This document shows, one piece after another, positions 2,901 to 15,207 of a stretch of DNA of 27,011 bases; within the stretch, counting starts at the first letter, position 1; each line of letters opens with the position of its first letter. The position numbers were made by a program, and so were the translations under genes. The notes under the pieces were generated by a model. The model did no database searches. It saw only the letters and a list, made by a program, of their open reading frames with translations, and was not told where the DNA came from. Source of the stretch: a virus; IMG/VR virus record IMGVR_UViG_3300013947_000112, positions 1 to 27,011 of that record. The stretch is one strand, 5' to 3'.

Positions 2901-2932
2901 ATTTTTTTGTCGCATAAGAGATGGATACAGAG

Positions 2933-3026
2933 TATAACTAAAACATCCAAAAGTTCAGAGTTTTTTTGTTTCTCTCTATATAGATAATCATAAAAAAACT
3001 CTGAAGTTTTGGATGTTTTAGTTATA
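2933..3026. repeat. 35-bp inverted repeat (one G:G mismatch) with a 24-nt loop
   Basis: tataactaaaacatccaaaagttcagagttttttt (2933-2967) versus aaaaaaactctgaagttttggatgttttagttata (2992-3026). Lies between the tail and head operons. Confidence 0.9.
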
Positions 3027-3084
3027 ACCATAAACACCCTGTTTTTTGATCTTGTATGTCCTATTCTTTATATTTTTTTCATTA

Positions 3085-4218: not shown

Positions 4219-5130
4219 ATGGCAAATCCAATAGTAAACAGTCTTCCTGCATATGTTGATGAGCAGAGACTTCCGTTGATAGCAAAGACTATTCTCGGTG
4301 CAAAGACGGCTGAACTTCTTACACTTGTGGCCGATGTGAAATCAAAGACCGCACTCAATCTCATATCCACTGATGTCGTATTCGGTGATGGTGGATCTTG
4401 TGGTTGGGATGATGCCGGGACTTCAACCCTTTCACAGAGATATATTGATCCGGCATATCTCAAAGTGAATATGTCTTTCTGTGATAAGGCACTTCTCGGC
4501 AAATGGGCGTCATATCAGGTTGCACTGACAGCAGGAAAGGAGACTCTTCCATTTGAGGAGGACTTTGTAAACGGAGTTCTTGATGGAGTAAAGGTAGGTA
4601 TTGAGAAGATGATCTGGCAGGGAAAGAAGGCTGACGGCAATCAGTTTGACGGTTTTCTTGAAATTCTCTCAAATGAAGCGACCGCAAAAAAGGTGGTTGT
4701 GGCACAGGGAACGGGAGCATATGAAGCTATCAAGTCTGTCTATGCCGCAATCCCGAGTGAGGTGGTCATGAAGGAAGATACTGTAATATTTGTGAGTGAA
4801 GGTATGTATAGAAACTTCATTCAGGATCTTGTGGCTGCAAATCTTTACCATTTCAATCCGGACTATAAGGATGGTGAGTATCTTCTCCCTGGCACTTCTG
4901 TAAGGGTGATCGCAACTTCCGGTCTCAATGGCACTGCTGGTGCAGGTGAGGACAAGATTGTTGCAGGTCGTCTCTCAAACATGTTCTATGGTGTATCCGC
5001 AGAAGATGATGACCAGACCTTCAAACTCTGGTATAGCAATGACAATCAAGAGTTCAGACTTGCAATCAACTTTGCAGCAGGTGTGAATGTCGCTTATCCA
5101 GATGAAATAGTTTATACGGCAGAGGCCTAA
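4219..5130 (+). CDS. Major capsid protein (HK97-fold type, 303 aa)
   Basis: Position right after the protease/scaffold gene, typical size, and a strong terminator immediately downstream. Sequence looks like Bacteroidota-phage capsid proteins from memory only. Confidence 0.65.
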   Translation: MANPIVNSLPAYVDEQRLPLIAKTILGAKTAELLTLVADVKSKTALNLISTDVVFGDGGSCGWDDAGTSTLSQRYIDPAYLKVNMSFCDKALLGKWASYQVALTAGKETLPFEEDFVNGVLDGVKVGIEKMIWQGKKADGNQFDGFLEILSNEATAKKVVVAQGTGAYEAIKSVYAAIPSEVVMKEDTVIFVSEGMYRNFIQDLVAANLYHFNPDYKDGEYLLPGTSVRVIATSGLNGTAGAGEDKIVAGRLSNMFYGVSAEDDDQTFKLWYSNDNQEFRLAINFAAGVNVAYPDEIVYTAEA

Positions 5131-11926: not shown

Positions 11927-12173
11927 TTTCTGTGCAGTGTTTTCATTTTTATCCCTATGCAGTCAAGCAGAAAGTCAAGTTTGTCATTGTCCTTCTTAAT
12001 AAAGTAAGATGGTCTCAGTCTCATCTCCCTTATGGACAACTCCTTCTGCCATTCAGTGTATTGTCTGTTTATTTCTTCAACCATATATTGATGTCCATAG
12101 TGTATTTATGTGAAAATATAAAAATCCCTTTTGTATCTCACGACAGAAAAGGGAAAGAAATATGAAAAATCTT

Positions 12174-12215
12174 TGTTATCTTTATAAATGTATGGGATCA
12201 AAAAAAAAAATGAAA
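12174..12215 (+). promoter_or_regulatory. Class-1 promoter-like module, copy a (TGTTATCTTTATAAATGTATGGGATC-A11-TGAAA)
   Basis: The 40 nt at 12176-12215 are identical to 12424-12463. The core TTATCTTTATAAAT recurs at 14412. Confidence 0.45.
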
Positions 12216-12394
12216 TTTGAACTCTCATAAATATAGTATGGCACAGTTATTGCAGTGTCATATATGAAGAATAATGATTGATTTGATGTCTCACTCCACA
12301 ATATGACAGATGATCAATGAGAAATATACAAGTTCAGTCTTTTCGAAACGGAAGTGGAGTGCCGGAGTAGAAAGATTGAACTTTTTTGTTTTGA
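12216..12394 (+). ncRNA. Candidate small non-coding transcript between promoter-like copy a and a + strand terminator
   Basis: The longest ATG ORFs here are 6-9 codons. It is bounded upstream by the duplicated module and downstream by a hairpin plus T-run at 12331-12394. Confidence 0.35.
12331..12394 (+). terminator. Intrinsic terminator-like hairpin
   Basis: agttcagtcttt (12331-12342) pairs with aaagattgaact (12371-12382). One G.U works only on the + strand. Followed by ttttttgtttt. The 28-nt loop is large for a terminator. Confidence 0.5.
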
Positions 12395-12423
12395 ATATAA
12401 TAAAAATTTAGTAATATGTATAA

Positions 12424-12463
12424 TTATCTTTATAAATGTATGGGATCAAAAAAAAAAATGAAA
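12424..12463 (+). promoter_or_regulatory. Class-1 promoter-like module, copy b
   Basis: Identical 40-mer to 12176-12215. About 28 nt of weaker similarity follows (ctcAcataaatata). Confidence 0.45.
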
Positions 12464-12503
12464 AATGATCTCACATAAATATATAGTAATAAGTTTATTT
12501 TAT

Positions 12504-12848
12504 ATGGAAATTACAGAAAAGACTATAAGTGATCTCATTCACAAGTGGGTGGAGATAAAGAAGAAGGACAGGGAATTCAATGAATTCTTTATGAAGTATA
12601 TGACAAGAAATGGAAAGGTAATGATATACACAGAAGAATTGGATTATGTAATTAAAATATCCTCACAAAAACTTGTATATAAAGTGAATCAAAATGATCT
12701 GAAATCAAAATATCCTGAAATATACAAGGAACTGCAAAATAACAATCTGAAATCAAAATATCCTGAAATATACAATGATTTGAAGGAACTTTATCTGAAA
12801 TCTTCTTCTGTAAGTCTAAAAAAATGTAAAAAAAAACAACAACCATAA
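12504..12848 (+). CDS. Hypothetical Lys-rich protein with an internal 16-aa tandem repeat
   Basis: The ORF is open from ATG 12465; ATG 12504 (MEITEKT) is the alternative if transcription starts after the upstream module. A perfect 31-nt direct repeat at 12697-12727 and 12745-12775 encodes LKSKYPEIY twice. Confidence 0.4.
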   Translation: MEITEKTISDLIHKWVEIKKKDREFNEFFMKYMTRNGKVMIYTEELDYVIKISSQKLVYKVNQNDLKSKYPEIYKELQNNNLKSKYPEIYNDLKELYLKSSSVSLKKCKKKQQP

Positions 12849-13045
12849 ATAAAGTGATGGACATTTTATGATTTTGATGTTTGTTATATTTATATGTAGA
12901 ATATGAAAAGACTGTCAAGAAAGTTTGGCACACTTTTTGTATATAAGTAAGTAAAAAACTGCTGGCAAGGTCATAAACCTTACTCAAACAGGGAAATCAC
13001 GATGAAAAAGTTTAGAACCTGTTTTTGCCGTAAATGAAACCATAG

Positions 13046-13308
13046 GGACATTATCGGGGCCAGAAATCCACAGTTTATAAAGTTCTATGAAATACACACT
13101 GTCTCACCGGCTGAGTTTATGAGCTAAGGGGGAGTGAGATCATAGCACCTGATAAGGCTATGCGGGAATAATCAAGACCATTGTGTGTATTGAAACGAGA
13201 ATGAGTTCTGTGGAAGGAGAAAGAGAAAGGATAACAAGTCCTTTTGAAAGTCCGGGTGAGACTGGATTTAGAAATTTTCTTCAAAAACTCTATGGGATTT
13301 CTGTGTCC
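13046..13308. ncRNA. Candidate structured RNA, ~260 nt, with nested long-range helices (strand unresolved)
   Basis: Nested pairings: ggaca 13046-50 / tgtcc 13304-08; cagaaatcc 13061-69 / ggatttctg 13295-303; gtctcaccgg 13101-10 / ccgGgtgagac 13252-62 (1-nt bulge); catagc 13141-46 / gctatg 13157-62. An extra 9-bp pairing 13091-99 / 13183-91 crosses these. All three stop codons occur in the frame I translated. Confidence 0.4.
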
Positions 13309-13399
13309 AATTCGTAGATAAAGATATTATATAAAGAAATAAAAAAGAATAATATAAATAAGTTCTTTATAAATAAATTTATTGATAAAAAGAATGTTA

Positions 13400-13497
13400 G
13401 GACATAAAGTCCAAGAGGTTTCTGCTTGTGTTTGAGATTTCACTACGTTCAATCTCACCGCTTAGCTGCTTCGCTGCTTCGCTAACACAACAGAAAC
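13400..13497. other. Structured module A
   Basis: ggac-ATAAA-gtcc (13400-12), then aagag. A 14-bp stem with a 1-nt bulge (13418-32 / 13484-97) encloses hairpin tgagatt/aatctca (13433-39 / 13451-57) and a tandem gctgcttc x2 (13465-80). Confidence 0.5.
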
Positions 13498-13701
13498 ATA
13501 TAAACGGAAAAAGAGAAATATTAGATAATCGCGCATGCGAGGCGAGGCCAGAAGTGTAAGGTATAAGAGACTGTCTGTTCTTTGAATGGATAGTCTTTCA
13601 CTGTATCATATAGTGTTATACTAAATAAAAAAGGTGTTATACAGAATTCTCTTATATAGACTGATAAGAATGATGTTATACTTATAGAGAATTCTATGTA
13701 A

Positions 13702-13779
13702 TGACCATAAAGGTCAAAGGACAATCCTTATTCCGCTCCTACGGAGTTTGTTCGCTTCGCTCACCTACATAAGGATTGT
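13702..13779. other. Structured module B (same architecture as A, different stem sequences)
   Basis: tgacc-ATAAA-ggtca (13702-16), then aagg. An 11-bp stem acaatccttat/ataaggattgt (13721-31 / 13769-79) encloses hairpin ctcc-tac-ggag (13736-46) and ttcgcttcgct (13751-61). Confidence 0.5.
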
Positions 13780-13918
13780 ATCTTATTGAACTTGTTGTAT
13801 AAGAATTTGATGTAAAAGTCTTTCATAGTCTGTTATAGAAAAGTTTATTTTATAAAAAGAAAGATTTTTATATATAATAGATGCTCATAAGTAAAAAGAC
13901 TACTATGGAAGTCTTTAT

Positions 13919-13958
13919 ACAGGATAAGATCCCCCAAGCCCTTATCCTGTTTTTTTTT
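13919..13958 (+). terminator. Intrinsic terminator inside the non-coding region
   Basis: acaggataag (13919-28) / cttatcctgt (13941-50), 12-nt loop, T9 tail. No ORF lies upstream, so it would end a non-coding + strand transcript. Confidence 0.7.
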
Positions 13959-14254
13959 ATCAACTCACTTCTGTTATTCAAAGAAAGACTGTCTCTCACT
14001 TCTGTTATAAAAGACAAACAACAATCTATAATTCCTGTTATTTCACTCATATAAGGGTATTACAGACACTTTCTCTTATTCAACCTATAATTATACCACC
14101 CCACCCTTATAAGCTCAAATAAACCCACTATGGTTATGAAATACAGGGTGTCCCTCACTTCTCTGTTATAGAGAATTATATTTTGTTCCTGATCTTTATT
14201 TCATAAGCAAAAAGTCTGTTATTCAACTCATTTCTGTTATTCAAAGAAAGACTG

Positions 14255-14358
14255 TTATTTGATGGATGGGGTGGTCTAAAATCAACTTATAGACCTTGAC
14301 TGGTATAATCCTACATTTCACTCCTATAAGTGTCTAAAAACCCACCATAATCACTAAA
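14255..14358 (+). repeat. 104-bp direct repeat, copy 1
   Basis: 101 of 104 identical to 15104-15207 by manual alignment. A degenerate partial copy lies at about 14041-14153. Confidence 0.9.
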
Positions 14359-14400
14359 TACAGGGTGTCTCATACAGGGTGTCTCATACAGGGATGTCTC
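14358..14400 (+). repeat. Tandem ATACAGGG(A)TGTCTC x3
   Basis: Units at 14358-71, 14372-85 and 14386-400. A single related copy atacagggtgtccc is at 14141-54. Each block is followed by tcacttctctgttat. Confidence 0.9.
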
Positions 14401-14409
14401 TCACTTCTC

Positions 14410-14425
14410 TGTTATCTTTATAAAT
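14410..14425 (+). promoter_or_regulatory. Class-1 motif copy c (TGTTATCTTTATAAAT), 22 nt before ATG 14447
   Basis: The 16-mer is identical to 12174-12189. Confidence 0.45.
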
Positions 14426-14446
14426 ACATAAAATAAAGAACTTGCT

Positions 14447-15082
14447 ATGAAAATAACCAGTATAGACTTTTCACTTGTCAGTCCAGCCATAACCAACTAT
14501 AATTCAACCACCCACACCTATGACTTCGTCTCATTCACTGCTGTCCCTACCTATCACTCATATGAGACATCAAAGAAATTCCAGACACACAGATCAATCT
14601 CACCTTATATAACCATAGTCCCTTATGTCCGTTCCATAGACAAATCCACCTACCAGACCACAGAGGAGACAAAAGTCCTTGATGCAATGTCCCTGTCTAA
14701 TCTCATAATCCACAAGATCAATGAATTTCACCCCGACATAGTAGCTATTGAAGGGTATAGTTTCGCATCACATTCCGCAAGCTATATTGATCTTGTCTCC
14801 TATCAGTCCATTCTCCGCTCACAGATAAAGAAATATGGTTATCCTTTGTATGTCATCTCACCCAGTCAAGGCAAAATGGCACTGTCCGGTAAAGGCAATG
14901 CAGACAAGATGACACAAATTCATTCATTTATTGAGAACAGGCCAGACATACCTTATATAGAAGAGAATTCATTATGGTGGTTTCTTCAAAGTTATATGAT
15001 CAATGAGAATAAACTCAAACCTGTTGATGATATTGTTGACTCTGTGGGAGTTCTTTTGTCAAGTCTCAAACACATTCAATAA
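14447..15082 (+). CDS. RuvC-like Holliday-junction resolvase (211 aa)
   Basis: MKITSIDFS (Asp7), VAIEGYSF (Glu102), ISPSQGKMALSGKGNADK (matches the RuvC p..vK....G.G.A.K pattern) and VDDIVDSVGV (D..D) line up with the four RuvC catalytic acidic positions. Confidence 0.7.
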   Translation: MKITSIDFSLVSPAITNYNSTTHTYDFVSFTAVPTYHSYETSKKFQTHRSISPYITIVPYVRSIDKSTYQTTEETKVLDAMSLSNLIIHKINEFHPDIVAIEGYSFASHSASYIDLVSYQSILRSQIKKYGYPLYVISPSQGKMALSGKGNADKMTQIHSFIENRPDIPYIEENSLWWFLQSYMINENKLKPVDDIVDSVGVLLSSLKHIQ

Positions 15083-15103
15083 AACCCTGTTACTGGAAGT
15101 CCC

Positions 15104-15207
15104 TTATTTGATGGATGGGGTGGTCTAAAATCAACTTATAGACCCTTACTGGTATAATCCTACCTTTCACTCCTATAAGTGTCTAAAAACCCACCATAAT
15201 CACTAAA
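15104..15207 (+). repeat. 104-bp direct repeat, copy 2
   Basis: See 14255-14358. The copies are 849 bp apart and bracket the resolvase gene. Confidence 0.9.

Follow-up and report, generated by a model that had tools for sequence, protein, structure and literature searches.

Paired structured noncoding modules on optional cassettes upstream of a RuvC-like gene in an uncultured phage

We analysed the virus record IMGVR_UViG_3300013947_000112 over its full length of 27,011 nucleotides (nt), hereafter the window, and in particular two noncoding modules in it, A and B, which share an ordered layout of hairpins, a long closing helix and a C/U-rich tract. The window is a complete, circularly assembled phage genome whose ends join in frame; an alternative genetic code is not needed, and independent assemblies of this genome gave contigs of 26.9-27.7 kb. 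Nearly all genes lie on the + strand. The genome encodes a terminase, portal, protease, tape measure, DUF285/BACON tail proteins, an endolysin, an HNH nuclease and a RuvC-like resolvase; a helicase, primase, polymerase or initiator was not recognisable by Pfam or PHROGs anywhere in the complete ~27 kb. A Bacteroidota host is indicated by the BACON domains, by the BT4734-type primase of relatives and by the origin from pig and other guts. Both modules are situated within a stretch of 1.6 kb (12849-14446) that is free of open reading frames (ORFs) and lies just upstream of the RuvC-like gene.

Each module consists, in the same order, of a short hairpin with an ATAAA loop, a spacer, a closing helix, and, enclosed by the latter, an inner hairpin and a tract (Table 1). 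This layout had been noticed in an earlier reading made from the letters of the window alone (the sequence-only reading), and every part was located exactly where that reading had placed it. Across the six helices of A and B, 45 of 45 base pairs (bp) are Watson-Crick pairs, and the stem sequences of the two modules have nothing in common, which bears out the statement that unrelated stems keep their pairing. TTCGCT occurs twice in each tract, as had been said, with the two copies of B overlapping by one T; the unit common to both tracts is the 8-mer GCTTCGCT. The ATAAA hairpins, with stems of 4-5 bp, are nearly identical in both modules, and the ATGTTA (13394-99) preceding A matches the ATGTAA (13696-701) preceding B.

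Table 1 Features of the window and of the corresponding slot in related phages. Positions are those of the window unless a genome is named; retrieved genomes carry L numbers.
Feature	Position or genome	Strand	Content
Module A	13400-13497	+	Hairpin, spacer, closing helix, inner hairpin, tract; read from sequence
Module A hairpin	13400-03, 13404-08, 13409-12	+	GGAC, ATAAA loop, GTCC
Module A spacer	13413-17	+	AAGAG
Module A closing helix	13418-32 / 13484-97	+	14 bp, C13425 bulged; arms 5' GTTTCTG[C]TTGTGTT, 3' AACACAACAGAAAC
Module A inner hairpin	13433-39 / 13451-57	+	TGAGATT / AATCTCA
Module A tract	13458-83	+	CCGCTTAGCTGCTTCGCTGCTTCGCT; three 8-mers: GCTTAGCT, GCTTCGCT, GCTTCGCT
Module B	13702-13779	+	Same five-part order as A; read from sequence
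Module B hairpin	13702-06, 13707-11, 13712-16	+	TGACC, ATAAA loop, GGTCA
Module B spacer	13717-20	+	AAGG
Module B closing helix	13721-31 / 13769-79	+	11 bp; arms 5' ACAATCCTTAT, 3' ATAAGGATTGT
Module B inner hairpin	13736-46	+	CTCC-TAC-GGAG
Module B tract	13747-68	+	TTTGTTCGCTTCGCTCACCTAC; contains TTCGCTTCGCT
B unit	13577-13960	+	384-nt cassette: operator/promoter, module B, AU-rich hairpin, terminator
Promoter-like motif TGTTATACTTATA	13674-13686	+	Contains -7-like box TATACTTA (13677-84)
Weaker -7-like box TAAATTTA	13374-13381	+	Ends 19 nt before module A; direct reading
Operator-like inverted repeat (I10)	arms 13637-52, 13686-701		Around B promoter motif; 88% complementary
Intrinsic terminator	13919-13958	+	CAGGATAAG, 12-nt loop, CTTATCCTG, T9; 9-10 bp stem
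A cassette	12834-13561	+	Promoter motif 12882-94, G+C-richer ORF-less block, module A, GC tract
GC tract GCGAGGCGAGGCC	13537-13549	+	Pairs with UUCGCUUCGC of module B, including G-U pairs
Iteron field	13961-14446		CTGTTAT, AAAGACTGTC and ATACAGGGTGTCTC repeats; promoter motif of RuvC-like operon at 14410
Leader RNA	12287-12405	+	Downstream of promoter motif at 12174
ORF127	12465-12848	+	Internal tandem repeat NDLKSKYPEIYKELQNN / NLKSKYPEIYNDLKEL
Palindrome	2931-3027		Arms ~35 nt, intergenic after tape-measure gene
Direct repeat	14248-14358, 15097-15207		111 nt, 95% identical
Slot content	Relatives with 68-73% identical RuvC-like protein (L091-L098 group)		VapE/DUF5906 helicase and BT4734_N/PriCT_2 primase, textbook iteron origin between
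Slot content	L393, L395		DEAD-type helicase, ~930 aa
Slot content	L001-3		379-aa helix-turn-helix (HTH) protein
Slot content	L004, L183		A cassette (12834-13561) without any + strand ORF
Slot content	The window		ORF127 and A cassette
Slot content	L397		~390 nt in total
Homing-endonuclease loci	L003 6146-6823; L009 2791-3468; L184 1359-1808; L393 1281-1760, 7313-7843		GIY-YIG, HNH/NUMOD4, DUF559

Folding of the + strand as RNA gave minimum free energy (MFE) structures of -30.1 kcal/mol for A (z -3.3) and -23.4 kcal/mol for B (z -3.7). In both modules these recover the ATAAA hairpin together with the closing helix, and for A they also show the inner hairpin; in the RNA structure of B another short inner helix takes the place of the hairpin at 13736-46. 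Folded as DNA, A reached a z of -4.8 and B of -4.3; the minus strand folds about equally well, with values from -3.7 to -4.8 over both modules and strands. A descriptor of the layout, which required a hairpin with a 5-nt loop on a stem of at least 4 bp, a spacer of 3-6 nt and a helix of at least 10 bp spanning 50-105 nt, matched five times in the window compared to about once per dinucleotide shuffle (20 shuffles), the five including A, B and, on the opposite strand, B's own hairpin. Moreover, only three of the 226 ATAAA/TTTAT sites in the genome lie within hairpins of at least 4 bp. A and B are among these three and are the only ATAAA-loop hairpins of the genome that contain GC pairs; both are preceded by ATGTWA and followed by AAG. 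On the + strand, GCTTCGC is present in three copies genome-wide, all of them within A and B. The modules are real and non-random, and chance is excluded.

Local alignment of the A and B units revealed no significant similarity beyond the shared layout and two short blocks, and a recent duplication was therefore rejected. Since neutral drift from a common ancestor would not preserve 25 of 25 closing-helix pairs, a constraint on pairing appears to be the simplest reading of this comparison between two paralogues. The sequence-only reading went further and saw in the layout a signature of selection on structure. Layout and pairing indeed lie far beyond chance, while selection is unproven with two paralogues only and all other copies identical. 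The option that the modules act as cruciforms, also raised there, is unlikely, with the arms of the closing helices 48-51 nt apart.

The search for homologues of the modules in Rfam, IMG/VR, GTDB, GenBank phages and PLSDB revealed none. Rfam 15 at gathering thresholds gave no match in the whole window, so that the earlier statement that no named motif has this layout holds for this release; with E-values up to 10 the region 12800-14500 gave chance-level eukaryotic or unrelated matches only, none of them over A or B. ARAGORN detected no tRNA or tmRNA genes in the window, and the noncoding region had no BLAST match among GenBank phages or PLSDB plasmids. Three pattern designs were run on IMG/VR and GTDB, and descriptor scans also covered all fetched relatives (2.6 Mb). 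The strict 5' pattern matched nothing in either database; the pattern from the hairpin to GCTTCGCT gave 2 matches in IMG/VR and 79 in GTDB, all by chance and none with both helices; and the loose layout pattern gave random matches, with the hairpin in none of those listed. Exact 19-20-mers of B and of the GC block of the A cassette had 0 matches. The phage group itself is remote from described phages, as its large terminase subunit TerL is at most 26% identical to that of any GenBank phage, and no relative of the RuvC-like protein above 42% identity was found in IMG/VR and JGI metagenomes. Close relatives were present only in ENA/Logan assemblies, and the contigs from intermediate relatives (RuvC identity 77-90%) are interrupted in the repeats that immediately precede the RuvC-like gene. 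The sequence-only reading had held that a lack of further instances would speak for chance inverted repeats; with none found, its claim is left unproven but not refuted. A and B constitute a previously undescribed pair of structured noncoding modules.

Among the genomes that do carry the modules, the 32 retrieved copies of B are 100% identical. Module A occurs in two length variants, with a single 8-mer in the tract of the sisters L004, L183, L189 and L191, and the number of tract 8-mers varies from 1 to 3 between strains. Both modules are accessory: A travels with the A cassette and B with the 384-nt B unit, each of which is variably present. A is absent in L001-3 and B in L101, L009 and L397, and B is doubled in L186. 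The sister genomes L004 and L183 carry A and B without the ORF at 12504, which does not support the link to the product of this ORF that the sequence-only reading had suggested.

The B unit is a discrete insertion, which replaces 31 nt present in L009, L101 and L395 (junctions after AAGAGACTGTCT and before CAACTCAC) and is tandemly duplicated in L186. Its -7-like box ends 18 nt before module B, and the spacing from a TAnnTTTA-type box to the module is equal for A and B within 1 nt (18-19 nt). The underlying motif TGTTATNYTTATA has four exact copies on the + strand (12174, 12882, 13674 and 14410), all within 12.1-14.4 kb, with an expectation of 0.62 for the search as run, which considered both strands and allowed one mismatch. 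Two of the copies precede known genes, namely the leader/ORF127 and the RuvC-like operon (14410), and the motif precedes the RuvC-like gene in all relatives examined. Furthermore, two of the three genomic sites of the palindrome AGAATTCT (13643-50, 13688-95) are located inside the operator-like inverted repeat.

At its 3' edge the B insertion ends exactly with the strong intrinsic terminator (-12.3 kcal/mol, z -5.5). Other terminator-class sites on the + strand lie at or just past gene ends, save a weak 6-bp site at 14159-75 in the iteron field. As the T-run of the terminator varies from 9 to 12 between genomes, nothing coding extends across it. A putative transcript of 272 nt (13691-13962) folds with a z of -4.9 and module B intact at its 5' end. 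An intrinsic terminator together with the absence of an ORF, by which Bacteroidota small RNA (sRNA) genes may be recognised, is thus found in the B unit and not in A.

The A cassette is present in window/L005, L004, L183, L186, L189 and L191 and replaced by the gene for the 379-aa HTH protein in L001-L003; the rest of the 2.6 Mb retrieved contained nothing similar to it. Its G+C-richer block (~12950-13320; G+C 0.40 compared to ~0.28 in the flanks) is without an ORF or an Rfam match and folds weakly better than shuffles (z -1.7). Between the two modules, the GC tract is predicted to pair with B over 10 bp, 8 of them Watson-Crick, in MFE and centroid folds of 13388-13800, a pairing that has no comparative support. 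In a read-through RNA it would compete with the closing helix of B; it may also be a coincidence.

In the explanation that we consider the most likely, with a probability of roughly 0.4, A and B would be paralogues that form the structured 5' domains of noncoding RNAs of the + strand, encoded by optional, moron-like cassettes within an early or replication-control slot of the genome. Host RNA polymerase would start ~6-8 nt after the -7-like box of B, near 13690, transcribe module B and the AU-rich hairpin and stop at the terminator at 13919-58, which would yield an ORF-less RNA of ~270 nt. The AUAAA hairpin would cap its 5' end and could stabilise the RNA or serve as a handle for a protein. 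The long perfect helix would close a multiloop that exposes the C/U-rich GCUUCGCU tract unpaired, and this tract could be the working part, either as a base-pairing seed or as a protein-binding site. The transcript of the A cassette would run on into the B unit. An own promoter or start site, an intrinsic terminator and the lack of an ORF are the signature of canonical Bacteroides intergenic sRNAs (PMC7366714), and it is because of its promoter motif, its terminator and the lack of an ORF that we read the B unit as a noncoding 'moron'. That RNA-level control may operate in the region is suggested by the covarying leader RNA with a terminator in the same noncoding region.

Several observations weigh against this proposal. 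The Bacteroidota -7 consensus is TAnnTTTG (PMC7366714), from which B's box TATACTTA deviates twice, with the final G missing and a C at position 5; A's box TAAATTTA likewise lacks the final G and lies in AT-rich DNA where such matches are common, and is thus weak evidence. The neighbouring iterons likewise have TGTTAT as their core, so that the 'promoter' motif could be a site bound by a protein instead. Module A has no terminator of its own. A complementarity search for targets of the C/U tract gave chance-level results only, the best being 15 nt at 7532-46 inside a tail-fibre-like gene (p ~0.1). The absence of G-U among the 45 bp is neutral at best, as the genome's terminators and the covarying leader helix are also all Watson-Crick. 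Finally, A and B show no orthologous covariation, because all retrievable copies are identical and more distant relatives lack the elements.

Read as an sRNA gene, the B unit is most similar to a Bacteroides intergenic sRNA gene (PMC7366714) on a phage moron. It is likewise a discrete element, an insertion that begins with a promoter-type motif and ends with an intrinsic terminator, has no ORF, and shows a stable multi-hairpin fold with an unpaired C/U-rich potential seed tract; with phage morons it shares the accessory status, being present or absent between strains. In contrast to the described sRNAs, to none of which it has sequence or covariance-model similarity, it is known from sequence alone. 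Classical morons carry a protein gene, whereas the cargo of the B unit is noncoding, and the tandem arrangement of two paralogous modules is a further difference to both. Phage immunity RNAs offer another comparison. The P4 CI and P1/P7 C4 RNAs are processed from a leader and pair with complementary repeats on the same transcript. The locus resembles them in having a putative structured small RNA in an early control region and a loop tract with a complementary partner (13537-49) upstream on the same putative transcript. However, the complementarity is limited to 10 bp, some of them G-U pairs, genomes with B but without the A cassette do not have the partner tract, and no sign of processing or of lysogeny functions was found.

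The same cassettes may be read as DNA. The modules could be single-stranded initiation signals, in which the exposed minus strand, as lagging-strand template next to the iteron field, folds and is primed by the host primase or primosome. GCGAAGC mini-hairpins would keep the site free of single-stranded DNA-binding protein and compensate for the lack of a phage primase or helicase. This is the main rival explanation, coherent but in our view unlikely. GCGNAGC and GCGNNAGC form extraordinarily stable DNA mini-hairpins, reported from the priming sites of G4, St-1 and alpha3, the single-strand initiation (ssi) site ssiA of RSF1010 and the hairpin promoters of N4 (PMC13037366). A G4-type ssi has one of these mini-hairpins in a hairpin cluster on the template strand, and such a cluster is found here: the minus strand has two copies of GCGAAGC in A and one each in B and in A's short form. 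In favour of this explanation, all pairs are Watson-Crick, both strands fold well as DNA, and the iteron field is 200-550 nt away from the modules, which share one orientation. The genome is devoid of a recognisable helicase, primase or initiator, and in relatives with ~70% identity precisely this slot is occupied by VapE together with a primase, or by a DEAD helicase; no pseudogene trace of these is left.

However, the modules are dispensable, since L009 and L101 keep the iteron field without B, L001-3 do without A, and the slot of L397 measures ~390 nt. The bounds of the B unit, a promoter motif and a terminator, are not needed by an ssi, and finding the same 7-mer in both tracts, each of ~25 nt, is no more than moderately improbable. 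Compared to the G4-type origins and to RSF1010 ssiA/ssiB (PMC13037366), the locus is alike in the GCGAAGC on one strand in a hairpin cluster, in adjoining an iteron-type origin region and in the genome having no primase of its own. It differs in belonging to a tailed double-stranded DNA (dsDNA) phage and not to a single-stranded DNA phage or a strand-displacement plasmid, in having both elements on the same strand and dispensable in sisters, and in showing no similarity beyond the 7-mer; priming is hypothetical.

It is likewise doubtful that A and B are functionless hitch-hikers, that is, young palindromic insertions or duplication debris too recent to have decayed. Their restriction to one narrow lineage, with identical copies that are polymorphic in presence and number, would fit such an origin, as would the failure of all three pattern designs to find an instance in IMG/VR or GTDB and the occurrence of another, putatively mobile palindrome in these genomes. 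A recent duplication would nevertheless leave similarity, of which flanks and stems of A and B show none, and an old unselected one would not keep 25 of 25 closing pairs; in addition, the B unit has a promoter motif and a terminator.

We judge it very unlikely that the modules are promoter-proximal antitermination elements that allow read-through of downstream terminators into the RuvC-like and structural operon; the nascent module, or a phage protein bound to its AUAAA hairpin, would have to modify RNA polymerase. HK022 putL/putR and lambda nutL/nutR are pairs of promoter-proximal RNA sites, two per genome, by which RNA polymerase is made terminator-resistant, and the put RNA consists of two adjacent stem-loops of ~70 nt acting in cis on the polymerase. 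A and B have a loose, architectural resemblance to put and, like put and nut, repeat one architecture at two sites that differ in sequence, with a promoter-like box shortly before each. Each has a near-identical hairpin of boxB size (4-5 bp stem, 5-nt loop), and a terminator stands between B and the long rightward operon. Yet AUAAA is not a GNRA-like pentaloop, no boxA-like (CGCUCUUUA-like) match occurs within the noncoding region, and no N-like or Q-like protein was detected; a lambda-type nut site is excluded on account of the loop and the missing boxA. Moreover, put and nut sites lie on divergent early operons, whereas A and B stand in tandem on one strand with the terminator in B's own cassette. 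An antiterminator inserted together with its own terminator makes little sense, and a promoter motif of its own precedes the RuvC-like operon at 14410.

Least probable of all, A and B would be dsDNA sites read as duplex, without folding, by a phage or host regulator, initiator or recombinase. This would fit the density of repeats, iterons and operator-like palindromes in the region, the purely Watson-Crick pairing, and the clustering of cassette junctions and duplications at this locus. However, a single sequence-specific protein is poorly suited to arms that are separated by 48-51 nt and unrelated in sequence between A and B, the shared primary sequence is limited to the hairpin and GCTTCGCT, and neither integron attC boxes nor target-site duplications of the type left by miniature inverted-repeat transposable elements (MITEs) were matched.

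Several defined classes were rejected in addition. The single-strand origin ssoA of rolling-circle plasmids has RSB and CS-6 (TAGCGT/A) elements, a partner Rep and a double-strand origin as hallmarks; Pfam and PHROGs gave no rolling-circle Rep, and TAGCGA occurs on the minus strand of A only, with GAGCGA in B. An integron attC would have R'' RYYYAAC ... R' GTTRRRY boxes at the ends of an imperfect palindrome. The arms GTTTCTG...CAGAAAC (A) and ACAATCC...GGATTGT (B) are wrong in polarity and sequence, and no integrase is present. MITE or foldback elements were dismissed as there is no duplication at the helix ends and copies occur only at this locus. An N4-type hairpin promoter is read by a virion RNA polymerase; no RNA-polymerase-like protein was detected among the ORFs scanned with Pfam and PHROGs, and a stand-alone mini-hairpin would have 2 bp instead of a 5-7 bp stem with a 3-nt loop.

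The slot in which the cassettes reside, between the divergent early genes and the RuvC-like gene (window 12085-14446), has non-homologous contents among related phages, and tblastn gave no trace by which the noncoding DNA could be a decayed helicase or primase pseudogene. Directly to the right of the B unit follows the iteron field, and L101 and L395 have a related field in front of their RuvC-like genes. The 111-nt direct repeat flanks this gene on both sides, so that the repeat/iteron field extends to either side of it. To the left lies the conserved leader RNA, which in relatives stands directly before replication genes and has no Rfam match. It comprises a long terminator-type hairpin (AAGTTCAGTC...GATTGAACTT and a U-run) with four compensatory pairs across six phages and an overlapping helix CACTCCAC/GTGGAGTG that covaries (TGCTCCAC/GTGGAGCA, CTCGTCC/GGACGAG, CCGTCC/GGACGG). 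Its covariation score was 0.44 compared to 0.23 in shuffles (1 of 500), and we regard it as a candidate attenuator or riboregulator. ORF127 was found among the retrieved genomes only in window/L005, and its sole family match is a sub-threshold one in Pfam (E 0.007).

Other mobile or repeated elements are present in this phage group. Homing-endonuclease genes are present or absent between otherwise near-identical genomes (Table 1). The near-perfect palindrome downstream of the tape-measure gene may be a mobile palindromic element; in other genomes, related copies are inserted in the iteron field upstream of the RuvC-like gene (L002 5628-5720; L395 ~4636-4735). An element of ~121 nt (GGTGTAGCAAAAAGGGCCAATTTG...) follows the 379-aa gene in L001 (5098-5340), where it is tandemly repeated, and also occurs in L003, L007, L008, L010, L182, L185 and L186. 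It has its own ATAAAAA-loop hairpin inside a 7-bp closing helix.

A and B are a well-documented, lineage-private candidate, and their meaning depends on which reading applies. It is improbable, though worth considering, that a protein replication module was replaced here by noncoding cassettes and that A and B are part of what makes the origin work, either as priming signals through GCGAAGC on the minus strand or, as in ColE1, through a primer or regulator RNA close to the origin. Replication of this tailed phage would then depend on host enzymes throughout, with structured nucleic-acid elements to guide them. If the DNA reading were true, mini-hairpin priming signals would extend to tailed phages of Bacteroidota, which would explain how a phage of 27 kb manages without replication proteins of its own. 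If B, and with it A, is instead a small RNA, it would represent a new RNA family of an uncultured Bacteroidota gut phage and a swappable 'noncoding moron'; to our knowledge, the regulatory RNAs described from gut phages are very few. The locus also amounts to a natural experiment, in which near-identical genomes differ only in whether the slot cassette is a protein gene, RNA-like or empty, and because they differ only in this cassette, its function could be read from strain competition or metatranscriptomes.

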